Assembly (NCBI GenBank): GCA_001778695.1
Contig: MFHU01000004.1
Coordinates: 210-64,209, forward strand
Direction of reading: 5' to 3'
Length of the DNA: 64,000 bases
Source of the DNA: Candidatus Giovannonibacteria bacterium RIFCSPHIGHO2_12_FULL_44_22
Lineage (GTDB): Bacteria; Patescibacteriota; Minisyncoccia; UBA11713; 2-01-FULL-45-33
Positions 20,572 to 56,863 of this stretch are shown piece after piece. Position 1 is the first letter of the stretch. Every line of letters starts with the position of its first letter. The translations under genes were made by a program, and so were the position numbers. The notes below the pieces were generated by a model, which saw only the letters and a list, made by a program, of their open reading frames with translations, searched no databases and was not told where the DNA came from.

Positions 20572-21330
20572 ATGAAACGACTCATTATTGCAAATTGGAA
20601 GATGGCGCCGCAAACTTCTCGCGAGGCATTGCGCCTTGCGCAAGGAATTGCGCGCGGAGTTAAAGGTGTAAAAAATGTCGAAGTTGTCTTGACCCCACCT
20701 TTTATTTATTTGCTATTGCTTAAACTTGGCCTGCCTCGCCTGACGCGAGTCAAGGCGGGCGCGCAAGATGTTTTTTGGGAAAAGAACGGGGCTTACACGG
20801 GAGAAATTTCGACCAATCAACTTAAAGCCTCTGGCGTAAGGTTGGTGATTGTGGGTCATTCCGAGCGTAGGGCGTTGTGGGAAACCAATGAAATCGTAAA
20901 TAAAAAATTAAAAGCGGTTTTGGGCGCGGGTATGCGGGCAGTGCTTTGCGTGGGGGAAGCGGAAAAACAAAAAGAAGTAGCCTTTCCAAAAATAATCAGG
21001 GACGAACTTCATGAAGGACTTGCGCGCATTAAAAAGTCATTGTTCCGGAATTTGATTATTGCTTATGAACCGATTTGGGCGGTTGGAACGGGAAGGGCTG
21101 ACACGCCAAAAAACGTTTACGAAATTACGACGATTATCCGCCGAGAGCTTTACCGCATGGTTGGAAAAAGAATCGCTTCCAAAATCCCTGTGCTTTACGG
21201 CGGATCGGTGGACGAAAAAAATGCCCATGCTTTCGTGAAAGACGGTGCTGTCGACGGCTTGCTGGTTGGCGGGGCGAGTCTCAACGCCAAAAAATTTATA
21301 AACATAGTGAAAGCGGTGTCTGAAGTATGA
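20572..21330 (+). CDS. tpiA: Triosephosphate isomerase
   Basis: IANWKM, VIVGHSERR, IAYEPIWAVGTG. Confidence 0.92.
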   Translation: MKRLIIANWKMAPQTSREALRLAQGIARGVKGVKNVEVVLTPPFIYLLLLKLGLPRLTRVKAGAQDVFWEKNGAYTGEISTNQLKASGVRLVIVGHSERRALWETNEIVNKKLKAVLGAGMRAVLCVGEAEKQKEVAFPKIIRDELHEGLARIKKSLFRNLIIAYEPIWAVGTGRADTPKNVYEITTIIRRELYRMVGKRIASKIPVLYGGSVDEKNAHAFVKDGAVDGLLVGGASLNAKKFINIVKAVSEV

Positions 21331-22352
21331 AAAGAATAATTTTGCGCGTTGATTTTAACTGGCCGTATGAATATCGGATTGAAAAAACACTTCCTACTAT
21401 ACGCGCTCTTTTGAAAAATGGCGCGGCGAGTGTTGTTTTAATCACGCATTGCGAAAAAGACGGCAAAATCCCGCATTTAAACGGCCTTTATAAATATTTA
21501 AAAAAGTTTTTCAAAAATATTTTGTTTGTTGAGGGGCCGATAAAAAAAATGCCGGAAGATTTTTTTAACCGGCACAAAAATCGCGTTGTGCTTTTGGATA
21601 ATTTAAGATTTGGTTCAGGAGAAAAAAATAATAGTTTGGCGTTCGCGAAGGTCTTGGCTTCTTGGGGCGACTGTTATATAAATGACGCTTTTGCCGAATC
21701 CCATCGCAATTATGCTTCCATTGTTTTACTGCCCAAATTACTGCCTCACGAGACCGGAACGTTATTTAAAGAAGAAATTAAAAATCTTTCCAGATTTTTC
21801 AAGCCCCAGCATCCATTTTTGGTGATTATCGCCGGGAAAAAATTCGCGACCAAAGAACCATTGGTATCGCGATTTTTAAAATCGGCGGATGCGGTATTTA
21901 TCGGGGGCGCCATCGGCAATACTTTTTTGGCTAGGCGCGGAATTAGCGCAGGAAAATCAAAAATTGAGAGCGTAAAAATTCCCAAAAGCGTTATTTGGAA
22001 CAATAAAATTTTACTGCCCGAGGATTGGGCTATGCGTAACAGCTTGATTTTAGACGCTGGGCCGAAAACTGTAGAAATTTTGGGCGAGCTTGCCAAAGCG
22101 TCCAAGTTTGTTTTATGGAATGGGACTTTGGGCCTTTGCGAAAAAGGATTTGAATATGGCACAAAAACTTTTGCCAAAGAGTTGGGAAAATCCAAGGCTT
22201 ATAAAGTTGTGGGCGGAGGAGATACCGTCGCGGCTATCCGGAAATTCAAGCTTGAAAAAAACTTTGATTTTATTTCAACGGGCGGCGGCGCCATGCTGGA
22301 ATTTTTGGCGAAAGGAACCCTCCCGGGGATTGAAGCATTGAAGGAGAAATAA
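21327..22352 (+). CDS. pgk: Phosphoglycerate kinase (shortened, divergent)
   Basis: RVDFNWP...LPTI; C-terminal FISTGGGAMLEFLAKGTLPGIEAL; 341 aa vs typical ~395. Confidence 0.75.
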   Translation: MKRIILRVDFNWPYEYRIEKTLPTIRALLKNGAASVVLITHCEKDGKIPHLNGLYKYLKKFFKNILFVEGPIKKMPEDFFNRHKNRVVLLDNLRFGSGEKNNSLAFAKVLASWGDCYINDAFAESHRNYASIVLLPKLLPHETGTLFKEEIKNLSRFFKPQHPFLVIIAGKKFATKEPLVSRFLKSADAVFIGGAIGNTFLARRGISAGKSKIESVKIPKSVIWNNKILLPEDWAMRNSLILDAGPKTVEILGELAKASKFVLWNGTLGLCEKGFEYGTKTFAKELGKSKAYKVVGGGDTVAAIRKFKLEKNFDFISTGGGAMLEFLAKGTLPGIEALKEK

Positions 22353-27284: not shown

Positions 27285-27359
27285 TATGCCAGGTAGTGAA
27301 ATTTCGCATCACTACTTGGTAGTAATTAAAATTAATGCGAAATTCTACTACCTGGTATG
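27285..27359 (+). repeat. Start-codon-associated hairpin element, short form (67 nt), copy 4
   Basis: TATG|CCAGGTAGTGAAATTTCGCATC-ACTACTTGGTAGT-...-AATGCGAAATTCTACTACCTGG|TATG; 3' ATG = ndk start. Confidence 0.85.
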
Positions 27360-27947
27360 AAAAAACCCAAAGATGAGAGGACATTGGTTCTGGTAAAACC
27401 CGATGGCGTGATCCGCGGTTTGGTCGGCGAGGTGATTATGCGTTTTGAAAAGCGCGGGCTTAAAATAATCGCGTTAAAGATGGTCTGGCCCACTTCGGAA
27501 CACATTAACAAACACTATCCTTCGCACAATGAATGGTTTGAATCCGTTGGAAGCCGGACGAAGGAGTTTTTTCAGGGGAAAAATATTGATGTCAACGAAC
27601 ATTTTGGCACCGAAAATCCAGCCGAGATCGGTAAGCAGGTAAAGAGCTGGCTTTTGGACTATATGACTGTGGGTCCTGTTGTCGCGATGGTTATTGAGGG
27701 CATGCACGCGATAACGACTGTGAGAAAATTGGTCGGGCATACTTATCCAATAGAAGCGTTGCCGGGCAGTATCCGCGGGGATTTTTCCGTGGATACGCCT
27801 TCGGCGGCTAATGTTGAAAAAAGAGTAGTAAAAAATATTGTGCACGCTTCTGGAAATGACGCGGAAGCGTCCCATGAAATTGAACACTGGTTTTCTCCGG
27901 AAGAAATCAACGATTATAAGCGCTCCGATGAAGATATAATGTTTTAG
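27357..27947 (+). CDS. ndk: Nucleoside diphosphate kinase
   Basis: TLVLVKPDGV...NIVHASGN (active-site His). Confidence 0.9.
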   Translation: MKKPKDERTLVLVKPDGVIRGLVGEVIMRFEKRGLKIIALKMVWPTSEHINKHYPSHNEWFESVGSRTKEFFQGKNIDVNEHFGTENPAEIGKQVKSWLLDYMTVGPVVAMVIEGMHAITTVRKLVGHTYPIEALPGSIRGDFSVDTPSAANVEKRVVKNIVHASGNDAEASHEIEHWFSPEEINDYKRSDEDIMF

Positions 27948-44939: not shown

Positions 44940-45283
44940 GGGGATGATCGGCCTCGAGGGAGAGCGATTGATCATGCGTTCAGGCACCCCGCCAGGGCGG
45001 GGTTAAATCTCACCCCTGGGAAATCAATAAGTGCAAACTTATTTTCTAAAGTAACCGCTGCTTTTGGCGCTTTGCGTCCAATGCAGTTGGCAACTTCTTA
45101 CGCTTAACCGCGTAGGCATCCGTCCTTGATTCTCGCTAAAGGGTCGCGGGTGTTATAAGCGAGAAAAACTCTATCAAGAGTATAACTTGAAAAAATTTTT
45201 CCCGAGAGCAATCGAGGGAATAAGCCTGTAAACCGTAGATCATGATTTTTTCCGACCCGGGTTCAATTCCCGGCATCTCCACA
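44940..45283 (+). ncRNA. ssrA: tmRNA (SsrA)
   Basis: 5' GGGGAUG pairs with 3' CAUCUCC acceptor stem; T-arm CCGGGTTCAATTCCCGG; follows smpB; candidate tag ORF ...ATSYA*. Confidence 0.7.
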
Positions 45284-45312
45284 TCTTGGGTTTTTTAAGC
45301 TAAAGTTAACTT

Positions 45313-46914
45313 ATGTTTCGCGCCGAAATTAAGGAAGAGATAAAAAAGATTGTTAAAAAAATTTTTCTCGCCCAAGGCGGGCCAACCTTAGGCTGGTCGG
45401 TTGAAAGAAGTGAATCCGCCAGCTGGCGGACGGAGCATGGAGATTATTCCAGCAACGCGGCTCTGGTTTTAGCAAAAAGAGAGACGAAAAATCCTAGAGA
45501 AGTTGCGGAGGAAATTAAACAACAGTTACTTAGACGTCCGACATCTAAGTCCGAGAAGACGTTCGACGTCTTGAAATTTATCGAGCGGGTTGAAATCGCA
45601 GGACCGGGATTTTTGAATTTTTTTATTTCGCGCTCCGCGCTAACCGCAGAGCTCCAAGGTATTTTAAAAAATAAGAAATCTATTTTTAAATCCAATAATG
45701 ATAAATTGCGAATAAATCTTGAATTTGTTTCGGCAAACCCAACTGGACCGTTAACCATGGCCAATAGCAGAGGCGGTTTTTACGGCGACGCGCTGGCAAA
45801 TATTTTAAAGGCGGTTGGCCACAAGGTCACGCGAGAATATTTTATTAATGACGCAGGCAACCAAATAAAACTTTTGGGCGAAAGTATTTTAGCGGCTGAA
45901 GGCAATCTGCCAGCTGGCGGACCCGTAAAAGAAGAATATTATAAGGGCGCGTATATAAAAAAATTAAAAGGCAAGACCGCGGACGAGGCTGTAAAAATTT
46001 TGCTTTCTGGAATCAAAAAGTCTTTAAAAAAAGCAGGAATAAAATTTGATGTTTGGTTTTCGGAAGAAAAGAATTTGCGAAAAAAAGGGGAACTAAAAAA
46101 AGTTTTAGAGCTTTTAAATAAAAAAAAGTTATTAAAAGAGAGGGGGGGAGCGTTATGGCTTGGGGATGCCGTAGCTGTCAAATCAAATCAGGAATATACT
46201 TATTTTTTGGCGGATTTGGCGTACCACTATGATAAATTTATAAAAAGAAAATTTGATTTGGTTATTAATATTTGGGGAGCGGATCACCATGGCTATGTCG
46301 CGCGGATGCAAAAAGGAGCCGAAGCTCTAAGCGTTAATCCGGCGCGCCTTAAAATTATTATTATGCAGTTGGTGCGCTTGATAAGCCAGGGAAAAGAAGT
46401 AAAAATGTCCAAGCGCGCTGGGGAATTCATAACTTTGGACGATTTATTAAAAGAAGTTGGGCTTGACGCCGCTCGTTGGTTTTTTTTAGAGCGCTCGCCG
46501 GACACCCATATGGATTTTGATTTGGATTTGGCGAAAGAGCGTTCTAAAAAAAATCCGGTTTATTACGTCCAGTACGCGCACGCGAGAGCATGCAGTATTT
46601 TACGAAAAGGCAAGGCGGGGAAAAAGCCCAATCTTCAATTATTAATTCAACCAGAAGAATTTACTCTCATCAAAAAAATTCTGCAACTTTCTGAAATTAT
46701 TGAAGATATCACTGGCGATTTTCAGGTTCATCGGCTTACCCGCTATGTCTATGAGCTTGCGCAGGCCTTTACGAATTTTTATGAAAAACAACATGTAATT
46801 GATAAAGAAAATAAAGAGCTAACACAAGCCCGCTTAGCATTAGTTTCGGCAACGCAAAAAACCATAAAAAACGGTCTGAATCTTCTGGGTATTTCCGCTC
46901 CGGAGAAAATGTGA
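45313..46914 (+). CDS. argS: Arginine--tRNA ligase
   Basis: ArgRS N-domain, class I catalytic core, DALR anticodon-binding domain. Confidence 0.9.
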   Translation: MFRAEIKEEIKKIVKKIFLAQGGPTLGWSVERSESASWRTEHGDYSSNAALVLAKRETKNPREVAEEIKQQLLRRPTSKSEKTFDVLKFIERVEIAGPGFLNFFISRSALTAELQGILKNKKSIFKSNNDKLRINLEFVSANPTGPLTMANSRGGFYGDALANILKAVGHKVTREYFINDAGNQIKLLGESILAAEGNLPAGGPVKEEYYKGAYIKKLKGKTADEAVKILLSGIKKSLKKAGIKFDVWFSEEKNLRKKGELKKVLELLNKKKLLKERGGALWLGDAVAVKSNQEYTYFLADLAYHYDKFIKRKFDLVINIWGADHHGYVARMQKGAEALSVNPARLKIIIMQLVRLISQGKEVKMSKRAGEFITLDDLLKEVGLDAARWFFLERSPDTHMDFDLDLAKERSKKNPVYYVQYAHARACSILRKGKAGKKPNLQLLIQPEEFTLIKKILQLSEIIEDITGDFQVHRLTRYVYELAQAFTNFYEKQHVIDKENKELTQARLALVSATQKTIKNGLNLLGISAPEKM

Positions 46915-46959
46915 TAGATTTGAGTTAGATAAAAAGATACACAAAGAGAGGAGGCTGTT

Positions 46960-47613
46960 ATGCAAAAATATATCGCAATTGCTTTTTTATTTTTTCTTTG
47001 GTCATTTTCAATCGGGCTTGCCCAAGATAGGCCGGCGGAATTCAAAGAATTCGAGGAAATAGTTTCATGGGTTCTTAGATTTTCTGATGGATACGCGATT
47101 CCTAATCAAAGGCAAGCATGGATTAAGCAAGCAGAACGATATGAAGCTTTTGCTGCAAAATATCCGAAATCACCGCTTGTCGCTGAAGCAAAACTGCAGG
47201 CAGCTTCCATTTACCGGACGATAGAAACTCCGGAAGTCGGCGATTTGCGCATAGAAGCGGAAAATTGCGTCGCCAGAGCTCCCAGAAAAACATACATAGA
47301 GATTTGCGAAATTCTGTTTAATTTGAAAATTCGCGGGATGGAAAAAGATAAATTTTTCTTAGACAAGGCCAACAAAATGTTCTTGGAAATTGCGGAAAAA
47401 TTTGGGCACGAGAAAAGATATGTAATGTCCAGTCAACGCGCGGGCCGCTTCGAATTTGTGGATGAAGACGTTGGCGCTTACGCCCTTATGATATTTGTGG
47501 AGAGTATTTCTGACAAGCAAACACATCGTAGTTTGATGAGTATAATTTTGAAGCATTTCAAAATAAATGATCAAATTAAAGAAGCCCTTGAGAGTTATTT
47601 GAAAAACAATTAA
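46960..47613 (+). CDS. Hypothetical secreted protein (signal peptide)
   Basis: SD GAGGAGG; MQKYIAIAFLFFLWSFSIGLAQD signal. Confidence 0.5.
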   Translation: MQKYIAIAFLFFLWSFSIGLAQDRPAEFKEFEEIVSWVLRFSDGYAIPNQRQAWIKQAERYEAFAAKYPKSPLVAEAKLQAASIYRTIETPEVGDLRIEAENCVARAPRKTYIEICEILFNLKIRGMEKDKFFLDKANKMFLEIAEKFGHEKRYVMSSQRAGRFEFVDEDVGAYALMIFVESISDKQTHRSLMSIILKHFKINDQIKEALESYLKNN

Positions 47614-47644
47614 CATTTTTCCGTGGTTTGCGCGGAAAAAGACT

Positions 47645-47673
47645 GCCCCGCCTTTCATTAGGCGGGTTTTTTT
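47645..47673 (+). terminator. Rho-independent terminator (CCCCGCC...GGCGGG + T7)
   Basis: GC stem, 8-nt loop, TTTTTTT. Confidence 0.8.
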
Positions 47674-47686
47674 GTTATACTTTTTT

Positions 47687-47761
47687 TATACCAGGCAGTG
47701 AAACTTCGCGTTGCTGCTTGGCAGTTATTAAACTTAACGCGAAGTTCTACTACCTGGTATG
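47687..47761 (+). repeat. Start-codon-associated hairpin element, short form (67 nt), copy 5
   Basis: TATA|CCAGGCAGTGAAACTTCGCGTTG-GCTGCTTGGCAGT-...-AACGCGAAGTTCTACTACCTGG|TATG; 3' ATG = ileS start. Confidence 0.8.
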
Positions 47762-50700
47762 TTTGATGAAAAGGAGATTTTGAATTTTTGGGAGAAAAAT
47801 AAGATTTTTGAGCGCAGTGTAAATAACAGAAAAGGCAAGAAACCGTTTATTTTTTATGAGGGCCCGCCGACGGCCAATAATGTCCCGCATATGGGGCATT
47901 TTGAAACGCGCGTTTTTAAAGATGTAGTTTTAAGGTATAAAACAATGCGTGGGTTCTACGCGCCCCGCCGAGCGGGGTGGGACACGCACGGTCTGCCGGT
48001 GGAGGTGGAGGTTGAAAAAACCTTGGGGCTGAAAAATAAAAAAGATATAGAAAAATATGGCATTGCGGCTTTTAACAAAAAGTGCAGAGAATCGGTTTGG
48101 AAATATAAGGAGCTTTGGGAAAGGATGACACATCGCATGGGTTTTTGGATAGATATGGAACGCCCCTATATCACTTATGGAAATTCTTACATAGAATCTC
48201 TTTGGGGAATAATAAAAAAATTCGCGGATAAAAATTTGCTTTATGAAGATTACAAAGTAATGCCCTGGTGCGCGAGGTGTGGCACGGCATTATCCAGCCA
48301 TGAATTGGCACAAGGATATGAGAAAATCAACGAAAACTCTATTTTCGTTAAATTTCCAATTCGCCTGCCGGACGGACAGGTTTCCAATTCACAATTTTCA
48401 AACTCATATTTTCTAGTTTGGACAACAACTCCCTGGACATTGCCTGGAAACGTTGCCTTGGCTGTGAATCCAAAAATTGATTATGTCTTTGCAAAAAAAG
48501 ATGATTCAGACGAAACGCTGATTTTAGCGGAATCGCGAGTATCTGCTTTGGGAGAAGAATTTAAAATTTTAAAAAAAGCGCGCGGATCAGAATTTGTCGG
48601 CAATAAATATGAACCATTATATTCAAATAACGCTCCATATAAAGTAGTCGGTGGCGATTTTGTTTCTGCGGAAGAGGGCACGGGCATTGTTCATATCGCT
48701 CCAGCTTTTGGCGAAGACGATTTTCAACTTTCCAAAAAATTTAATTTGCCGGTTCTTGCGACAACGGATGAGCGTGGTCTGATGCGCGCGCCGGGAAAAC
48801 CATGGAATGGCGAGTGGTTTTCCGCCCTAGGCGGACCCGCCTCTGGCGGGAAAAAAGCGAACGAATTAATTATTGAAGACCTAAAATCACGCGGACTTTT
48901 ATTTAAAACTGAACTTTACGAACACGATTATCCATTTTGCTGGAGATGCAAAACGCCCTTGATGTATTTCGCCAGAAAATCTTGGTGGGTGGACGTAAAT
49001 AAAGTGAGAAAAAATCTGATAGCCAATAACCGCTCCATAAATTGGTATCCCGAGCATACTAAAGAGGGCCGGATGGGCGAGTGGCTGAAGGAAGAAAAAA
49101 ATTGGGCGTTTTCTAGAGAACGTTATTGGGGCACACCTTTGCCGATTTGGCGGTGCGAAAAGTGCAAGAAATGGGAAACATTCGGTTCAATAGAAGAATT
49201 AAAAAAACGCAACGCAACTTCAGGAAATAAATATTTTATAATGCGCCACGGAGAGGCGGAGAGCAACATAAAAAATATTGTGAACGGGGACATAAATAAA
49301 AATCACTACCCGCTTACACCGAGAGGCAAAAAACAAGTTGAGGTCTCGGTTAAAAATTTGCTTAAGAAAAAAATAAAACCCGATTTAATTTTTTCTTCCC
49401 CGTTTTTGCGCGCAGAAGAAACAGCAGAACTCATCGGGCAAAAATTAAGCATTGATAAGCAAAATATAAAAATTGATCCGCGATTTGGGGAAGTATATTG
49501 GGGTATTTTTGATGATACTGACCCTGCCAAATATCACGCTTATTATAAAAATCCGTTGGAGAAATTCGAGAAAGCTCCGCCGGAAGGCGAATCATTTTTG
49601 GATGTTAAAAAAAGAGTTTGGGACGCGCTTTCAGAGATTGAAGCGAGATACAAAAATAAAACCGTTTTAATAATAAGCCATGAAGACCCTATTTGGATGC
49701 TTTGGGCGGCCGCGGAAGGCAAAAACAATACGGAGTCGCTTTTGGAAAACAAAAAGCGAGATCAGTTTATAAAAACCGCAGAGTTTATCGAATTAAATCC
49801 TAATTTCCCGGCGCTTCCGCGCGACGAGAGTCTGATTTTGAATTTACACAAGCCGTATATTGATGAAATTAAATTAAAATGCCAATGCGGAGGCCAAATG
49901 CGAAGAGTGTCGGAGGTTTGCGATGTTTGGTTTGATTCGGGGGCAATGCCATTTGCGGCCAAGTATTATCCCAAATTGTATCCATCGGACTACATAACAG
50001 AAGGAGTTGATATGACTCGCGGATGGTTTTACACGCTTTTGGCCGTGGCTACTTTGCTTGGTAAAAAAGCGCCTTACAAAAATATAATTTCATTAGGGCA
50101 TGTTTTGGATGAAAAAGGGAAGAAGCTTTCCAAATCTTTGGGAAATTTTGTGGACCCGATGATTTTGATTGAAAAATACGGCGCGGAGCCGGCTCGGTGG
50201 TATTTTCTTACGGTAAACCAGCCGTGGGATTCCAAGCTTTTCAGGGAAGCAGACATCAAAGACGCCTCGCGCAGATTCCTCGTGATTCTGTGGAATGTTT
50301 TGCAATTTTGGAAAATATATGGAGGGAAATCTGGGAAAATTATTAGGTCCAAACTTCTAATCAATAAATGGGTTTTGGCGAAACTATCTGAAACCGCAAA
50401 TGCTATCACAAAAAAACTAGACAATTATGATATTGTCGGCGCCGCGCGCGAGCTGGAAAATTTTGTGACGGAGGATATTTCCCGTTGGTATATTCGCCGG
50501 ATTCGCGACGTGATGAAAGAAAATTCCTCCGTATCCAAAGAGACAAGTGCGGTTTTGCGCCATGTGCTTTTGGAAATTTCAAAACTTCTCGCCCCCTTCG
50601 CGCCGTTTATTTCGGAAAAAATTTGGTTGGAACTCGGAAATAAAAATAGCGTTCATCTGGAAGATTGGCCTCGCGGCCTGGAAATACAGCGAGGCAGTAT

Positions 50701-51151
50701 TTTGAAATTCATGCAAGAAACCAGAAGGATAGTTGGTCTTGCGCTGGAGGAGAGAGCCAAAGTAGGTATTAAAGTTAGACAGCCGCTCGCGCTTTTAAAA
50801 TTAAATAAAACTTATTCAAAACTCACCGCGGACTTTTTAGCGTTAATTAAAGCCGAGGTCAATGTTAAAGATATTGTTTTTGATTCTACATTGAAGGACG
50901 AAGTCCGGTTAGATACAAATATTACACCAAAATTAAAAGAAGAAGGCCTGCTCCGCGATCTTATCCGCGAAATCCAATCGGCTAGAAAAACGGCTGGTTT
51001 GAAGCCCAAAGACAAAGTAGCCGCCCAAATCTTCCTACCAAAAGAAATTTTAGAAATCGCCGAAAAATATGAAAAAGACTTAATGAAAGAGACAGGTTTA
51101 AAATCTCTCCACCTTTCCGAATCTCCCGCAATAAAAATTTCATTGAAATAA
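47759..51151 (+). CDS. ileS: Isoleucine--tRNA ligase with inserted histidine-phosphatase (PGM-like) domain
   Basis: HMGH, KLSKSLGN, DVWFDSG; RHGEAESN ... ISHEDPIWMLW module inserted at ~49225..49800 between CxxC and CxC. Confidence 0.9.
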   Translation: MFDEKEILNFWEKNKIFERSVNNRKGKKPFIFYEGPPTANNVPHMGHFETRVFKDVVLRYKTMRGFYAPRRAGWDTHGLPVEVEVEKTLGLKNKKDIEKYGIAAFNKKCRESVWKYKELWERMTHRMGFWIDMERPYITYGNSYIESLWGIIKKFADKNLLYEDYKVMPWCARCGTALSSHELAQGYEKINENSIFVKFPIRLPDGQVSNSQFSNSYFLVWTTTPWTLPGNVALAVNPKIDYVFAKKDDSDETLILAESRVSALGEEFKILKKARGSEFVGNKYEPLYSNNAPYKVVGGDFVSAEEGTGIVHIAPAFGEDDFQLSKKFNLPVLATTDERGLMRAPGKPWNGEWFSALGGPASGGKKANELIIEDLKSRGLLFKTELYEHDYPFCWRCKTPLMYFARKSWWVDVNKVRKNLIANNRSINWYPEHTKEGRMGEWLKEEKNWAFSRERYWGTPLPIWRCEKCKKWETFGSIEELKKRNATSGNKYFIMRHGEAESNIKNIVNGDINKNHYPLTPRGKKQVEVSVKNLLKKKIKPDLIFSSPFLRAEETAELIGQKLSIDKQNIKIDPRFGEVYWGIFDDTDPAKYHAYYKNPLEKFEKAPPEGESFLDVKKRVWDALSEIEARYKNKTVLIISHEDPIWMLWAAAEGKNNTESLLENKKRDQFIKTAEFIELNPNFPALPRDESLILNLHKPYIDEIKLKCQCGGQMRRVSEVCDVWFDSGAMPFAAKYYPKLYPSDYITEGVDMTRGWFYTLLAVATLLGKKAPYKNIISLGHVLDEKGKKLSKSLGNFVDPMILIEKYGAEPARWYFLTVNQPWDSKLFREADIKDASRRFLVILWNVLQFWKIYGGKSGKIIRSKLLINKWVLAKLSETANAITKKLDNYDIVGAARELENFVTEDISRWYIRRIRDVMKENSSVSKETSAVLRHVLLEISKLLAPFAPFISEKIWLELGNKNSVHLEDWPRGLEIQRGSILKFMQETRRIVGLALEERAKVGIKVRQPLALLKLNKTYSKLTADFLALIKAEVNVKDIVFDSTLKDEVRLDTNITPKLKEEGLLRDLIREIQSARKTAGLKPKDKVAAQIFLPKEILEIAEKYEKDLMKETGLKSLHLSESPAIKISLK
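48821..48850. repeat. 30-nt double-hairpin palindromic element (degenerate copy), in-frame in ileS
   Basis: TCCGCCCTAGGCGGACCCGCCTCTGGCGGG encodes SALGGPASGG. Confidence 0.8.
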
Positions 51152-51158
51152 AAAAATA

Positions 51159-51174
51159 GGGGCGACTTCGCCCC
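51159..51174. terminator. GC hairpin (GGGGCG-ACTT-CGCCCC) between convergent ileS and 51202 gene
   Basis: T-run on minus-strand side (rc of AAATAAAAAAATAG). Confidence 0.55.
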
Positions 51175-51201
51175 AATTCGGGACCAGATTGATTCCAAAA
51201 C

Positions 51202-51585
51202 CTAATTTGGCCATAGCGCGAGCAATTTTATCAGCCCGCCATCAAAAATGAACAGGAACAGCCAGTGCCCGGCTGAGATTGCTATGACAAACGGCCAGGC
51301 AATCTGTATCAGTCTCCATTGCCACATTGCCATTTCTTCTCCGCCGCAAAACAGATATACGCCATTCCCCATGACTGTTTCCACTAGCCCTGAGCCGACC
51401 ATGTTTTTGCAGGCTCGCTCAATGTCGCCCGCGATCAAATATCCGACATTGAGATAGATTGCCGCGATAAACAGAAGTATTAAGATTCCTACTACTAGCT
51501 TCTTCTTGCGATATTTGGCATTTACTGCCTCCGCCATTTTTTGGCCGTCAATCCTGCTATCATCCCTGCTAATACTACTTTCCAT
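51202..51585 (-). CDS. Hypothetical membrane protein (127 aa)
   Basis: Strong SD AAGGAGGGG upstream; 3 TM. Confidence 0.45.
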   Translation of the reverse strand: MESSISRDDSRIDGQKMAEAVNAKYRKKKLVVGILILLFIAAIYLNVGYLIAGDIERACKNMVGSGLVETVMGNGVYLFCGGEEMAMWQWRLIQIAWPFVIAISAGHWLFLFIFDGGLIKLLALWPN

Positions 51586-51717
51586 AAAATACCCCTCCTT
51601 TTGGGTTGTTTTTGAGCCTAAATAAGGCTAGTTTTTATTGTTCTCTGCTTCTATTATACACCCAAAGGAGGTGGTTGTCAATAGTGACAATTCGGACAGA
51701 TGATATAAGCTTTAGAT

Positions 51718-52005
51718 ATGGCTAACGGTACTATAACAATAATTCCTAAAAAAATTACCGGTGGAGTTGAAGATTTGGTCATGTTGCCGCGCGGTGAATT
51801 TGAGGAAATGCAGGAGCGCCTGCGCCAAGTGCCGGTCCTGAAAAGATACGAAATTGTACATCATCAAAAAAAACAATACCAAGTTCCAGTATATCAATTG
51901 ATTGGAAAAGCAGCTTCGCGTCTTGATAGAAGAGTCAAAGCGGCTCTGAGAGAATTTAAGGCTGGCAGAACAAAGCCGCTTAAGTCTTTGGCGGAGCTTA
52001 GGTAA
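51718..52005 (+). CDS. Putative antitoxin (AbrB/MazE-like N-terminus)
   Basis: Small ORF immediately upstream of RelE-like toxin; C-terminus related to the 61729 ORF (RTKPLKSLAELR vs KTRKLKSFRDLR). Confidence 0.4.
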   Translation: MANGTITIIPKKITGGVEDLVMLPRGEFEEMQERLRQVPVLKRYEIVHHQKKQYQVPVYQLIGKAASRLDRRVKAALREFKAGRTKPLKSLAELR

Positions 52006-52019
52006 TAATTTTGAAGTAG

Positions 52020-52280
52020 ATGAATATCTATAAATTGCCGCGGTTTGATCGCAGATATAAAAAATTACCTGCTAAAATTAAAGACCGCGCAGAAGAACGC
52101 GAGGCAATTTTTAAATTAAACCCATTCGATCTTAGACTAGAAACGCACAAGCTTCATGGCAAACAAAAAGACGAATGGTCGTATTCCATCGGCTATGATT
52201 ACCGCATTATGTTTATATTCCTAAAAAACGGCGATGTTATATATACCGATGTCGGGACACACGACGAAGTTTATATTTGA
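52020..52280 (+). CDS. RelE/ParE-family toxin
   Basis: LETHKLHGKQKDEWSYSIGYDYRIMFIF...GTHDEVY. Confidence 0.6.
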   Translation: MNIYKLPRFDRRYKKLPAKIKDRAEEREAIFKLNPFDLRLETHKLHGKQKDEWSYSIGYDYRIMFIFLKNGDVIYTDVGTHDEVYI

Positions 52281-52361
52281 ATAAAAAAACTTTGGCCAAA
52301 GAAACCAATCTAAAATCCCTATACCCCCCGAATCCATGGAAACAAAAATTTCACTGAAATA

Positions 52362-52922
52362 ATGCCCAGCGCGTATTTTAAAACCGAAGGTTTAATTATT
52401 AAAAAGATGCCTTTTGCGGAGGCGGATTTTTTGGTGAGAGTTTTTACGAAAGATTTCGGCAAAATGGACGCGCTGGCGAAAGGCGCGAGGAAAACCGCTT
52501 CAAAACTCAATCCGCATCTGGATATTTTAAACCATATCCGCATGCAGTTTGTGAAAAACGGCGAGCGGATTTCGACATTAATGGACGCCGAGATTATCTC
52601 TAAATACGATGATTGGTTTTTGACCGCGGATAAACTCTCTGTCGCGGGAAGAATTTTACAGGTAATTGATATGGTTATTCTGCCCGGCGCCAAAGACGGA
52701 AAATTATTTTTTATGTTACTGGATTTTTTTTCCGCCCGAGGCGGATCCGCCTTTGGCGGAGGATCTTTTGAGACTGTGGCAATAAATTTCCTCCGCAATT
52801 TTTTTAAGCACGAGGGCTACGGCGACACTTTGCCGGGTAGTGAAGCGCAGCTCTACTACCCGGCTTTGCCAGATTATTGTAGAGAAGCTATTATTAAACT
52901 TTGGCCTCAATTAAAAAATTGA
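52362..52922 (+). CDS. recO: DNA repair protein RecO (short, C-terminal region remodelled)
   Basis: N-terminal OB-fold FKTEGLIIKKMPFAEADFLVRVFTKDFGKMDALAKGARK; 186 aa; C-terminus carries two palindromic inserts. Confidence 0.65.
   Translation: MPSAYFKTEGLIIKKMPFAEADFLVRVFTKDFGKMDALAKGARKTASKLNPHLDILNHIRMQFVKNGERISTLMDAEIISKYDDWFLTADKLSVAGRILQVIDMVILPGAKDGKLFFMLLDFFSARGGSAFGGGSFETVAINFLRNFFKHEGYGDTLPGSEAQLYYPALPDYCREAIIKLWPQLKN
52731..52760. repeat. 30-nt double-hairpin palindromic element, in-frame in recO
   Basis: TCCGCCCGAGGCGGATCCGCCTTTGGCGGA encodes SARGGSAFGG. Confidence 0.9.
52833..52863 (+). repeat. 31-nt mini version of the start-codon hairpin element, in-frame inside recO
   Basis: CCGGGTAGTGAAG-CGCAG-CTCTACTACCCGG encodes PGSEAQLYYP. 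Confidence 0.75.
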
Positions 52923-52923
52923 T

Positions 52924-53199
52924 ATGAAGTTTTATTATGTTTATCTTTTAGAAAGCATTAAGAATGGCAATTTATATATTGGCTATACTAAGGATTTACT
53001 TAGGCGTATTAAAGAACATAATCAGGGTTTAAATTTTTCTACTAAACCTTATCGTCCTTGGCGTTTAATTTATTACGAGGCATGTCTTAACGAGAAGGAC
53101 GCGGAGAGAAGAGAAAAATATTTAAAGACAAATCAAGACGCCAGGCTCATTAAGCGCAGAATAAAAGAATATCTTTATTTAAAGCGCATTCAGGAGTAA
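52924..53199 (+). CDS. GIY-YIG domain protein (YhbQ/UPF0213-like), paralog of 3799..4062
   Basis: YVYLLESIKNGNLYIGYTKDLLRRIKEHN. Confidence 0.7.
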   Translation: MKFYYVYLLESIKNGNLYIGYTKDLLRRIKEHNQGLNFSTKPYRPWRLIYYEACLNEKDAERREKYLKTNQDARLIKRRIKEYLYLKRIQE

Positions 53200-53208
53200 T
53201 ATAAAAAT

Positions 53209-53598
53209 ATGAAGCCAGAATCAATTAATCACATACTGCTTATGGTTAGTAATGTGAAAAAAACCGAGAAGTTTTATGTCAAAATTTTGGGCAAACCAAT
53301 ACATAAAGACAAAGATTCTGTGGCATGGAAAATTAGGGACACAAAATTATTTTTCGGTTTGCCATTTAAGAAATTGAGAGGCAATGTGTTTAATCGAAAT
53401 CACATTGGTCTCAATCATTTGGCTTTCGCGGTTCGTACTTTGAACGAATTGAAGAAATGGGAGAAAAAATTAAATGACTCAGGAATTAAAAACAGTGGGA
53501 TAATTAAAGATAAATACAAAAATCAAGATTATATTTGGTTTGATGACCCAGATAATATAAGACAGGAATTTTATCTACATCCACCTAATGAGGAATGA
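53209..53598 (+). CDS. VOC/glyoxalase-like family protein
   Basis: HILLMVSNVKKTEKFYVKILG ... HLAFAV. Confidence 0.5.
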   Translation: MKPESINHILLMVSNVKKTEKFYVKILGKPIHKDKDSVAWKIRDTKLFFGLPFKKLRGNVFNRNHIGLNHLAFAVRTLNELKKWEKKLNDSGIKNSGIIKDKYKNQDYIWFDDPDNIRQEFYLHPPNEE

Positions 53599-53608
53599 AA
53601 CTAAAAAC

Positions 53609-53753
53609 TATGCCAGGTAGTGAAATTTCGCATCGTCGCTACGCGACGCGCTTTTATTGAGTGTGGCAGGCGCATTATTTTAAGGTATAATGGTTTTATG
53701 TTCAACAACGTCAAAACAATTACTAGCAATGCGAAATTCTACTACCTGGTATG
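53609..53753 (+). repeat. Start-codon-associated hairpin element, long form, copy 6
   Basis: Shares subterminal TTTCGCATC/ATGCGAAA with short copy 4; 137 nt; 3' ATG = start of 53751 gene. Confidence 0.85.
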
Positions 53754-55625
53754 GCCAATCTTGAAGAGCTGAAAAAACGGCTTTATAAAGAAAAAGAAGC
53801 ATTTGGCGAGCGTATGATCTCGCCGGAACTTGCCCGCTCGAAAAGAGCGAAGGCTTTTTTTTGGCACGAAACCGCGAGGGAAGTCAGCCGTAATGGATGG
53901 TTTTTGTGGGCGCTGGTTTTAGTTTTTATTTTAATTTTTTTGGGATTCCTATTTTTTATTTTCGGTTCGCCCACGATTTTTAAATCACAAAAAGTTGAGT
54001 TAAAAATTGAGGGAGCCAAGGAAATAAAAAGCGGAGATAGGATAACTTGGCAGGTGAAAGTAACCAACAACAATAGCGACACTTTAGAGGGCGCGGCTTT
54101 GGTTTTTAATTTTCCGGACGGAGCCATGCCGGCGGTTGGCGCCAAGCCCGCGGGAATTTTTAGGGAACGGCGCTCTTTGGGGAAAATCCTCCCGGGCGAG
54201 AGCGCCTCGGAAAATTTTGACGCCTTTGTTTTTGGCGGCCGGGGCGCCTTAAAAGAAGCTTCTGCGGTTTTGGAATACCGCCCGGCTGGAGGAAGCGCGG
54301 TTTTTGCCACTGACACGTCTTTTCAATTTTCCGTCGCCAGCGCGCCGGTCACGGTTTCGTTTAAGATGCCGGGGGATCTTCGCATAGGCCAGAGGGTGGA
54401 AATAGAAGTGGATTACGGTTCGCAGGCTGCCGAAATTGTCCCCGGCCTTTCGCTGATGCTCACATTGCCGGACGGTTTTGAATTTATTTCCGCTTCGCCC
54501 GCAGCTTCGGCGCAAAATAAAAATATTTGGCCGGTAGGAAACCTGAAACCCTCTCAAACCGGGTCCATAAAAATAAAGGGCATTGTGAGAGGCGCCAATC
54601 TTGAATCAAAAGTTTTTAAAGCGGCTTTGGGGATTCTTAATGAAGCCGACAATTCTTTTTTGGCTTACGATGAAATTATGGAGCCCGCTATATTGCACGC
54701 GCCGTTTTTGGAAGCCGATATTTTGGTGAATGACCAGCAGAAATACATCGCTTTTCCCGGGGACACGCTTTCTTTTGAGATAAGATTAAAAAATAATTTG
54801 CCGACCGAGGTTAAAAACGCGAGCCTGGAGGCAAAAATAGAAAGCGCGGACGGCGCGGCCGACTTGGGCTCCATCAGAGTAGAAGGCGGATCATACAGTG
54901 AGTCGTCCAAAAGTATTTTATGGAACGCTTCCACTCACGGCGCATTTAAAGTGTTAGCTCCGGACGCGGAGGACAGAGTGACTTTCTCGGTTAAAGTAAA
55001 AAATAATTTGCCGCTTTCAAGCGAGTCTTTGCGCCCGTCAATAAAATTAAGCGTCACGTTTAATCCTGGCGGAGAGGTGGCCGGATTTTCTGGCACGGAC
55101 GTGTCCGGGTCGGTGGCGCTGGAAATTAAAGTTTCTTCCAAACTGCAAGCGGCGGCCAGCGCGCTTTATGCGAATTCCATCATTTCCAACAGCGGCCCTC
55201 TGCCACCCAAGACGGGGCAAGAAACAACTTACACAGTTTTCTGGTCGCTGGCCAATATGGCAAATGACGTTGATAATGTCGTGGTGAAATCTTCTCTGCC
55301 GCCGTATATTAATTTTAAAAATGTGATTATGCCTGCGGATGCCGATATTTCTTTTGATAAAGCCAGCAATGAAATTATTTGGAAGGTTGGAAGAATTCCG
55401 GCCGGAATCGGTTTTTTGCGCCCCGCCATCCAGGTAGCTTTTCAAGTGGGGCTTACGCCTTCTCAAAATCAGGTGGATACGGCGCCGGTTATTTTAAACG
55501 CCACGGAAGTTTCTGGCCGCGATACTTATACCGACCAAATTTTGAATTCCGGCGACGGCCCGATCTCCACCGACCTTCCGGACGACCCCAATATTGGATT
55601 TAGCCAGAAAAAAGTAGTACCATAA
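53751..55625 (+). CDS. Large membrane-anchored protein with beta-rich repeats (DUF11/CARDB-like)
   Basis: N-terminal cytoplasmic stretch, one TM (~aa 50-75), ~540-aa Ser/Thr/Asn-rich ectodomain with VKVxNN repeats. Confidence 0.55.
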   Translation: MANLEELKKRLYKEKEAFGERMISPELARSKRAKAFFWHETAREVSRNGWFLWALVLVFILIFLGFLFFIFGSPTIFKSQKVELKIEGAKEIKSGDRITWQVKVTNNNSDTLEGAALVFNFPDGAMPAVGAKPAGIFRERRSLGKILPGESASENFDAFVFGGRGALKEASAVLEYRPAGGSAVFATDTSFQFSVASAPVTVSFKMPGDLRIGQRVEIEVDYGSQAAEIVPGLSLMLTLPDGFEFISASPAASAQNKNIWPVGNLKPSQTGSIKIKGIVRGANLESKVFKAALGILNEADNSFLAYDEIMEPAILHAPFLEADILVNDQQKYIAFPGDTLSFEIRLKNNLPTEVKNASLEAKIESADGAADLGSIRVEGGSYSESSKSILWNASTHGAFKVLAPDAEDRVTFSVKVKNNLPLSSESLRPSIKLSVTFNPGGEVAGFSGTDVSGSVALEIKVSSKLQAAASALYANSIISNSGPLPPKTGQETTYTVFWSLANMANDVDNVVVKSSLPPYINFKNVIMPADADISFDKASNEIIWKVGRIPAGIGFLRPAIQVAFQVGLTPSQNQVDTAPVILNATEVSGRDTYTDQILNSGDGPISTDLPDDPNIGFSQKKVVP

Positions 55626-55633
55626 AAAATCAA

Positions 55634-56863
55634 ATGGAAAATCAAATGGAAAAAATAGTAAGCTTAGCCAAACGGCGCGGATTTGTGTTCCCGGGCTCGG
55701 AGATTTACGGCGGTTTTGCCGGAACATACGACTACGGGCCCTTGGGCGCGGAATTGGCGCATAACATCAAGGAACTTTGGTGGAACCATTTTGTAAGAAA
55801 TCATGAAGAGATGTTTGGGCTCGCAAGCAGTATTTTAATGCCGGAAGCGGTATGGAAAGCCAGCGGACACTTAGAAGGTTTCGCCGATCCATTCGGTGAA
55901 GGCCAGCGCTTTAATTTGATGTTTAAAACCGAAGTTGGGGCGACCAAACCCGAAAATGCTTATTTGCGACCGGAAATCGCGCAAGGGATGTTTACTAATT
56001 TTAAAAATGTTTTAAATACAATGTGCCCAGAATTGCCTTTCGGCATTGCCCAGATCGGCAAAGCTTTCAGAAACGAAATCGCGCCTAGGGATTTTCTTTT
56101 CAGAGTCCGCGAGTTTGATCTGATGGAATTTGAGTATTTTGTAAAAGAGTCGGAGTGGGAAAAATATTTTGAAAAATGGCGCAAGGAAATGTGGGCTTGG
56201 ATAGAACGCGTCGGAATTGATAAAGAAAAAGTGAACGAGCTTGAAGTGCCTAAAGAAGACCGGGCGCATTATTCAAAAAGAACTATTGATTTTGAGTTTG
56301 AATATCCCTTCGGCAAGAAGGAACTTTACGGCTTGGCTTACCGCGCCGATTTTGACCTCTCTAATCATATGAAGCATTCTGGGGTTGATTTGAGATATAC
56401 CGACCCTGCCTCAGGAGAAAAATTTATTCCGCACGTGATTGAGCCGACTTTCGGATTGGGGCGCACGGTGCTTGCGGTTTTACTTTCGGCTTACCGCGAA
56501 GACGAACTAGGAGGAGAAAAGCGCGTATATTTGGCATTCAAGCCGCAAATTGCCCCGGTTACTGCCGCTGTGTTTCCGCTTGTTAAAAACAAGCCGGATT
56601 TGATCGCGAAAGCAAGAGAAATTTATCAAAATCTTAAACGTTCCATGCTTTATGTTTCAAGTTTTACGATTGCCTGGGACGACAACGGCAACATTGGCAA
56701 GCGCTACCGCAGGCAAGATGAAATCGGCACGCCCTGGTGCGTGACGATTGACTACCAAACTTTGGGAGACGATACCGTCACCATCCGCGACAGAGATACT
56801 GGAAAACAAGAACGGCATCCAGTTGCCGAGCTTGATAAGTATTTTAAGGAGATGTTAAAATAG
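55634..56863 (+). CDS. glyS: Glycine--tRNA ligase (class II, alpha2 type)
   Basis: KRRGFVFPGSEIYGG..., class II motifs; 409 aa. Confidence 0.85.
   Translation: MENQMEKIVSLAKRRGFVFPGSEIYGGFAGTYDYGPLGAELAHNIKELWWNHFVRNHEEMFGLASSILMPEAVWKASGHLEGFADPFGEGQRFNLMFKTEVGATKPENAYLRPEIAQGMFTNFKNVLNTMCPELPFGIAQIGKAFRNEIAPRDFLFRVREFDLMEFEYFVKESEWEKYFEKWRKEMWAWIERVGIDKEKVNELEVPKEDRAHYSKRTIDFEFEYPFGKKELYGLAYRADFDLSNHMKHSGVDLRYTDPASGEKFIPHVIEPTFGLGRTVLAVLLSAYREDELGGEKRVYLAFKPQIAPVTAAVFPLVKNKPDLIAKAREIYQNLKRSMLYVSSFTIAWDDNGNIGKRYRRQDEIGTPWCVTIDYQTLGDDTVTIRDRDTGKQERHPVAELDKYFKEMLK

Follow-up and report, generated by a model that had tools for sequence, protein, structure and literature searches.

The isoleucyl-tRNA synthetase (IleRS) gene of Candidatus Giovannonibacteria bacterium RIFCSPHIGHO2_12_FULL_44_22 encodes a histidine phosphatase (HP) nested inside the synthetase. 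We studied it in a 64,000-nucleotide stretch of contig MFHU01000004.1 (forward-strand positions 210 to 64,209), hereafter the window; positions are given in window coordinates, and the window genes, domains and motifs with coordinates below lie on the + strand. Judged from sequence, the phosphatase is inserted in the loop at the tip of the zinc knuckle of connective peptide 3 (CP3), and is not a terminal fusion. Conservation of its catalytic residues, co-variation of the insert with the synthetase body, a matching GC content and intact IleRS signatures together indicate that the module is old, was inherited vertically with IleRS across Parcubacteria/Paceibacteria, is catalytically constrained, and sits in a working synthetase. 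On the grounds of comparative genomics we also lean slightly towards a phosphatase activity that is functionally tied to the class Ia synthetases, and away from a random passenger.

Aligned with the IleRS of Thermus thermophilus (PDB 1ILE), the window protein was collinear on both sides of the insert, residues 4-485 pairing with chain residues 14-480 and residues 696-1004 with chain residues 490-821. Some 210 amino acids (aa 486-695; nucleotides 49214-49843), comprising the HP domain and its linkers, therefore stand in place of about 9 Thermus residues and have no counterpart in that enzyme. CP3 of Thermus IleRS bears a zinc-binding motif (PMC7191050). The zinc motif cysteines of the window protein are C466 and C469 (49154-49165) and C708 and C710 (49880-49888). 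The first knuckle half with its next helix, GSIEELKKR, covers 49145-49213, as placed by the sequence, the 1ILE alignment and a structural model with strands at 463-466 and 472-474 and a helix at 478-484. The second half, HKPYIDEIKLKCQCGGQMRRV (49844-49906), aligned with 1ILE residues 490-510. The original prediction, made from the letters of the sequence, had put a phosphatase at 49225-49800, inserted in the zinc-binding loop between collinear flanks and not fused at an end. The alignment with this type-2 IleRS agrees, and the interval translates to aa 490-681, the phosphatase fold proper. The motifs on which that prediction drew were all found in place: HMGH, WRCEKC (aa 464), RHGEAESN, SHEDP, KCQCGG (aa 707), DVWFDSG (aa 722) and KLSKS.

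A Pfam search, proposed earlier as a check on the insert, gave a highly significant match to His_Phos_1 (PF00300; aa 493-657, E=1e-30, 107.3 bits against a gathering score of 21.7). This profile score, the set of catalytic residues and the alpha/beta/alpha fold place the module in branch 1 of the histidine phosphatase superfamily. Residues were counted over 249 modules, a set that takes in HP modules from every context found, and over an alignment of the window IleRS with the IleRS genes from 78 GTDB loci (79 sequences). The RHG motif, which begins RHGEAESN at aa 496 (49244-49252), supplies R496 and the nucleophile H497, both present in 249/249 modules, and G498 (245/249). N503 (49265-49267) belongs to the RHGxxxxN phosphate pocket and is N in 205 and Q in 28 of the 249. 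The second phosphate-binding arginine, R551 of SSPFLRAEETA (49409-49411), was again found in all 249. The putative general acid, E578 (49490-49492), is E in 202 modules and D in 46, so that the position holds E or D in 248/249. The second catalytic histidine, H641 of ISHEDP (49679-49681; SHEDP starts at aa 640, nucleotide 49676), was kept in 248/249, the exception being a truncated module. Across the 79 aligned sequences R496, H497, G498, R551 and H641 were identical throughout, N503 was kept in 76, and E578 in 76, with Asp in the other three. By these counts the catalytic set is under strict purifying selection.

AlphaFold2 modelled the insert with its junctions alone at a pLDDT of 92.7 and a pTM of 0.89, and the full-length IleRS at a pLDDT of 89 and a pTM of 0.81, so the phosphatase fold anticipated by the original prediction emerged with confidence in both contexts. 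Block scores of 83-97 over the insert and both junctions point to defined packing on CP3, with no floppy tether; the model thus suggests a phosphatase docked in a fixed manner on CP3. With its fold and its catalytic set (R496, H497, N503, R551, E578, H641) intact, the module is a complete branch-1 histidine phosphatase. That it might be a decayed one, an alternative raised earlier, is disfavoured because the catalytic residues are kept across the 249 modules.

The host gene, ileS (47759-51151, 1130 aa), was recognized from the open reading frame (ORF) list, NCBIfam and its best PDB match, 1ILE (772 bits). Its score of 840.7 bits against the NCBIfam ileS model (TIGR00392; cut-off 621.4) identifies it as IleRS at the equivalog level. 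Besides His_Phos_1, Pfam reported tRNA-synt_1 in two pieces (368 bits), the anticodon-binding domain Anticodon_1 (aa 869-1011; 50363-50791; E=1.5e-32) and the type-2 IleRS C-terminal domain DUF5915 (aa 1021-1122; 50819-51124; E=2.3e-14). The HIGH signature of the synthetic site reads HMGH (aa 44-47; 47888-47899), with the last His kept in 67/79 aligned homologues, and the KMSKS signature reads KLSKS (aa 789-793; 50123-50137), with K789 and K792 kept in 78/79. The CP1 editing domain (about aa 186-392; 48314-48934), containing WTTTPWTLPGN and GTGIVHIAPAFGEDD, matched the structure of an isolated IleRS editing domain, 1WK8. The presence of HMGH, KLSKS, the CP1 domain and DUF5915 marks a type-2 (T. 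thermophilus-like) IleRS, in which the HIGH and KMSKS signatures, the CP-core zinc site and the editing motifs are all intact. The Rossmann fold, CP1 editing domain, CP2, CP3 knuckle (CxxC...CxC) and anticodon-binding domain are collinear with those of Thermus IleRS (1ILE/1JZQ), which differs in having no phosphatase. A mupirocin-resistant IleRS of the MupA/MupB kind was considered and rejected, the window protein scoring about 750 bits against the exception-model cut-off of 1900.

The insert evolves faster than its host, with a mean pairwise identity of 40% vs 56% for the IleRS body, and the two identities co-vary (r=0.62). GC and GC3 (GC at third codon positions) of the insert were the same as those of the flanks, on which basis recent horizontal acquisition was rejected. 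All four CP3 zinc cysteines were present in 43/79 homologues and lost together in 36/79, while the phosphatase stayed intact. The HP cap subdomain (about 40 residues) was gone in nine IleRSs (proteins P0049, P0053, P0054, P0057, P0060 and P0062; loci L062, L065 and L066), leaving a SixA-like open core with the catalytic residues retained; the cap is thus not essential to the module's job. Net charge, looked at as a hint of RNA binding, ranged from -8 to +19 across modules and is therefore uninformative.

The insertion proved to be lineage-wide in the survey of IleRSs from the Candidate Phyla Radiation (CPR) that had been proposed earlier. PF00300 was found in 120/120 of the best full-length homologues (47-100% identity), and a scan of one genome per species located the insert in at least 105 GTDB species. 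Named carriers, using the depositors' taxon names, were Giovannonibacteria (closest, 60-73%), Taga-, Niyogi-, Nealson- and Wildermuthbacteria, all of the Parcubacteria/Paceibacteria type, and the insert-bearing form is the standard IleRS of that group. Public annotation of the carriers reads only 'isoleucine--tRNA ligase' or 'class I tRNA ligase family protein'. When only the insert was used as query, a word-index search found no more than 6 partial IleRS fragments, as if the insert were rare; the full-length search and the GTDB scan overturned this. ArgRS, GlyRS and MetRS of the same 64-kb window carried no HP.

Rough trees of IleRS bodies were built by neighbour-joining, with no bootstrap and with Thermus, whose sequence has 9 unknown residues, as the single outside sequence; we used them only for the nesting of split forms (below) among insertion-bearing forms, not for the direction of evolution. 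Thermus IleRS, which has no insert, fell within the HP-bearing radiation. It shares 49-50% identity with one Parcubacterial subgroup, more than the roughly 41% shared between the two Parcubacterial subgroups. This position may result from poor rooting, or from a horizontal transfer in which the insert was lost.

In at least three lineages the phosphatase and the synthetase are separate genes. Free-standing HPs of about 190 aa (P0199, P0178 and P0167) lie 1, 9 and 7 nucleotides upstream of insert-less ileS genes encoding 931, 962 and 955 aa. These loci (L081, 8001-11367; L083, 6001-9471; L085, 4184-7646; in their own coordinates) share the synteny of the window, ArgRS-[HP]-IleRS-RecO-DUF11-GlyRS, and in the IleRS of L081 the zinc knuckle is intact and its loop short. 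The split HPs were nearest to other split HPs or to embedded ones, at 47-57% identity. The IleRS bodies of L081 and L083 were 52-54% identical to HP-bearing IleRSs, and that of L085 44-45%; in the tree L081 and L083 nested within HP-bearing clades, and L085, on a long branch, was basal to the Thermus-like clade. Because the split forms are related to insertion-bearing forms, these comparisons suggest repeated gene fission, with at least three secondary events after which the phosphatase was kept and co-transcribed with ileS. The wider gene order is conserved in Paceibacteria, with IleRS in 81/81 loci accompanied by ArgRS in 56/81, RecO in 60/81, a large DUF11 protein in 63/81 and GlyRS in 48/81 (window 45313-56863). 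Neighbour clustering of these 81 loci found housekeeping synteny only, and no conserved kinase, toxin or transporter beside ileS as a partner gene.

With only the insert as query, an exhaustive HMMER search returned 8284 matches at E<=1e-3 and 756 at E<=1e-10. It led to IleRSs of another lineage with two or three HP modules (P0221, P0281 and P0270; contigs of up to 1.06 Mb carry the P0281 cluster) and to three IleRS sites beyond the CP3 tip: one immediately past the second knuckle half, one following WFESGSMPYA and one where the anticodon-binding domain begins. Paceibacteria locus L061 combines modules at CP3 and at the post-WFDSG site, and a multi-module IleRS was noted at locus L087 (7001-11260). 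In the organism of P0281, PurA, DAHP synthase and an SLH protein are encoded beside ileS, neighbours from which it may not be a typical CPR bacterium.

Modules were also found in valyl-tRNA synthetase (ValRS; proteins P0191 and P0290-P0407). P0191 is a ValRS with four HP modules, and when it was used as query, 71 of the 120 best matches bore 1-4 modules, in proteins of about 1040-1626 aa. Most ValRS modules lie about 28 residues past WCISRQ, the CP3 site homologous to that of IleRS, at times in tandem, and there is a second site in CP2. Uptake of HP thus extends to four IleRS sites and two ValRS sites, with tandem arrays in ValRS. Insert-less relatives (about 880-980 aa) occur alongside the module-bearing ones. 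Those ValRS carriers that have names belong to the Gracilibacteria and Peregrinibacteria, and their contigs reach 1.37 Mb.

Assignment of the window module to a known phosphatase family failed in every case tried, its scores falling below each NCBIfam equivalog cut-off. PspA-type phosphoserine phosphatase (NF045917) gave 57.1 against a cut-off of 350, although 4IJ5 was the top structural neighbour; alpha-ribazole phosphatase CobC (TIGR03162) gave 66 against 162.9. SixA (TIGR00249) gave 42 against 74.5, with a match to the N-terminal half only, and the window module has a cap, unlike the minimal cap-less core. Its closest structural relatives are small-molecule phosphomonoesterases (PspA, GpgP and PhoE). 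Identity to the capped branch-1 HPs (PspA/iPSP1 4IJ5, GpgP 6S2Q, PhoE 1H2E, riboflavin-pathway HFP 9MMH and CobC 6E4B) is only 22-25%, and those enzymes are free-standing, whereas the window module is nested in a synthetase. Two other architectures invite comparison. NF040702 ('ileS_w_GNAT') is likewise an IleRS with an extra catalytic domain, but that domain is an N-acetyltransferase, and the window protein (315.7 against a cut-off of 1999) is no member. The RNase H/acid phosphatase NF005567 (Rv2228c type) also has a branch-1 HP on a nucleic-acid enzyme, and window residues 483-652 matched its phosphatase half at 73 bits, under the cut-off of 326; it is an end-to-end fusion, unlike the nested insert described here.

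If the module follows the chemistry of its family, His497 would attack a phosphomonoester to form a phospho-His497 enzyme, with the phosphate held by Arg496, Arg551, His641 and Asn503; Glu578 would protonate the leaving group, and water would then free the phosphate. The module may have a cis role on a target at the synthetase; candidates would be an enzyme loop that carries a phosphate, or a tRNA with a phosphorylated end. The KMSKS-loop serine of GluRS and TrpRS is phosphorylated by Hip-family toxin kinases, and toxic RelA/SpoT-homologue enzymes put a 3'-(pyro)phosphate on the CCA end. Such a serine phosphate, or such a 3'-(pyro)phosphate, could be the target of a cis repair phosphatase. The fuller proposal, in which HP is a third, cis-acting catalytic site that removes inhibitory phosphate from the synthetase or tRNA in repair or immunity, is speculative, and we give it a low probability.

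The broader reading, a functional tie between the phosphatase and class Ia synthetases, draws on the recurrent capture of modules by IleRS and ValRS, their amplification, and their retention in the operon after fission. Several points weigh against it. The substrate of the HP is a guess. The variety of sites (CP3 tip, post-WFDSG, start of the anticodon domain) argues against one precise active-site geometry, and the split forms show that the module need not be covalently joined to the synthetase. Small-molecule enzymes make up all of the nearest structures, in line with an ordinary metabolic phosphatase. ValRS modules are about 35% identical to IleRS modules, no nearer than unrelated free-standing HPs, so common ancestry of the two associations is not shown. 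By analogy, domain capture by class I synthetases for non-catalytic reasons has a precedent in CAAD (PMC4893482).

CAAD, which is homologous to a stand-alone protein, was captured recurrently and independently inside cyanobacterial monomeric class I synthetases, including ValRS and IleRS, at alternative insertion points and with the enzyme still active (PMC4893482). It differs from the HP module in being a non-catalytic membrane anchor confined to cyanobacteria, whereas the module is an enzyme domain of CPR bacteria with a conserved active site. Unlike CAAD, the module is also amplified in tandem and occurs as an operon-coupled split gene.

The strongest rival, though in our judgement a distinctly less probable one than a functional tie, is that a housekeeping small-molecule phosphatase, such as a PspA-like phosphoserine phosphatase or a broad-specificity enzyme of the PhoE type, became lodged in a permissive loop of a gene that is essential and constitutively expressed, and was retained since the free copy was lost, with no mechanistic link to aminoacylation. 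The use of various permissive loops, the fission forms that do without a covalent link, the small-molecule character of the nearest structures, the want of a conserved partner gene adjoining ileS in the 81 loci and the capture of a membrane anchor as CAAD without effect on catalysis (PMC4893482) would all suit such a passenger, as would the context of a related free HP, P0141 (39% identical), which lies among sugar-metabolism genes (ROK kinase, HAD and GlmS). It accounts less well for the choice of hosts: IleRS and ValRS were the only fusion partners among about two dozen closely inspected of the best 150 matches, and uptake recurred in these two paralogous synthetases of different CPR classes, in tandem up to 3-4 copies. 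Nor would it lead one to expect that, on at least three independent occasions, the gene remained translationally coupled to ileS after fission.

We regard as very unlikely a catalytically dead scaffold or phospho-ligand sensor that modulates IleRS. The confident docking of HP on CP3 in the full-length model would be in keeping with such a role, and histidine-phosphatase pseudoenzymes are known (e.g. chain 8GDL), but even between deeply diverged modules the catalytic residues are kept, in 248-249 of the 249, whereas the zinc cysteines and the HP cap tolerate variation or loss.

A cofactor-dependent phosphoglycerate mutase (dPGM) is most unlikely. In its favour, the best NCBIfam phosphatase-type match is dPGM_arch, PGM is reported to be patchy or undetected in some Parcubacteria (PMC7304191), and the window has TIM and PGK and no PGM. 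However, the module scored far under the cut-offs of dPGM_arch (83.7 vs 225), PRK01295 (36.5 vs 316) and GpmB (31.6 vs 261), its closest structures are phosphatases and no mutases, and the cap subdomain is wholly gone in some lineages. Nor, by eye, does it have what we take to be the dPGM motifs: EKFEKAPP stands for the substrate-binding stretch WRRS..PPP, and SHEDP for the HGNS after the second His.

An artefact, whether chimeric assembly or a frameshift joining a phosphatase gene to ileS fragments, is excluded: nothing was found in its favour, the ORF is single and uninterrupted with flanks collinear with 1ILE, the GC content of insert and flanks is equal, an identical protein (P0015) is present in independent ENA data, and the same architecture and junctions recur in more than 200 independent assemblies (hundreds of metagenome-assembled genomes).

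Around ileS, Rfam yielded no regulatory RNA other than transfer-messenger RNA (tmRNA), whose gene (44940-45284; 85 bits) lies just upstream of argS and encodes the tag peptide ANLFSKVTAAFGALRPMQLATSYA according to ARAGORN. A promoter and terminator scan around ileS stayed at background level save for one hairpin upstream, at 47647-47666. This GC-rich hairpin is followed by a T-run, is terminator-like on the + strand, and lies between the upstream hypothetical gene and ileS, which may therefore have its own transcript start. Two adjacent small ORFs of 95 and 86 aa (51718-52280), the second weakly of YafQ/RelE type (E=6e-4, under the cut-off), may represent a toxin-antitoxin pair that has inserted between ileS and recO. 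The recO gene is directly followed by an ORF of 91 aa (52924-53199; Pfam E=5e-19) for a stand-alone GIY-YIG nuclease domain. Farther upstream, the TIM and PGK genes are adjacent (20572-22352) with no phosphoglycerate mutase beside them, and a nucleoside diphosphate kinase (27357-27947) has 196 aa vs the usual 140-150 or so; its Pfam match falls in two stretches, and this kinase too seems to contain additional sequence. The window ORFs that were scanned included no further His_Phos protein.

Few enzymes have been studied as thoroughly as the aminoacyl-tRNA synthetases. To our knowledge, extra catalytic domains in their cores are rare and usually betray new biology, such as editing, signalling or resistance. 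A full-text search of 8 million texts found no description of a phosphatase in IleRS or ValRS, and a 2026 preprint on the domain architectures of about 96,000 IleRS sequences mentions neither phosphatase nor Patescibacteria. The component families are known, and public databases already contain the architecture, unremarked; what deserves notice is that it is fixed throughout a lineage, recurs in ValRS and also exists as split genes. In one of the largest uncultured bacterial radiations, IleRS has as a fixed component a phosphatase that appears active from its sequence, and ValRS of another CPR class has recruited a module of the same kind. If the module is a passenger, it would be a clear example from nature of essential genes that repeatedly captured a domain and underwent fission, and also a warning for CPR metabolic reconstructions, in which matches to 'PGM', 'PspA' or 'CobC' hidden Markov models may lie within ileS or valS. 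If instead the phosphatase does act on the synthetase or on tRNA, it would add a new layer of translation control or repair.

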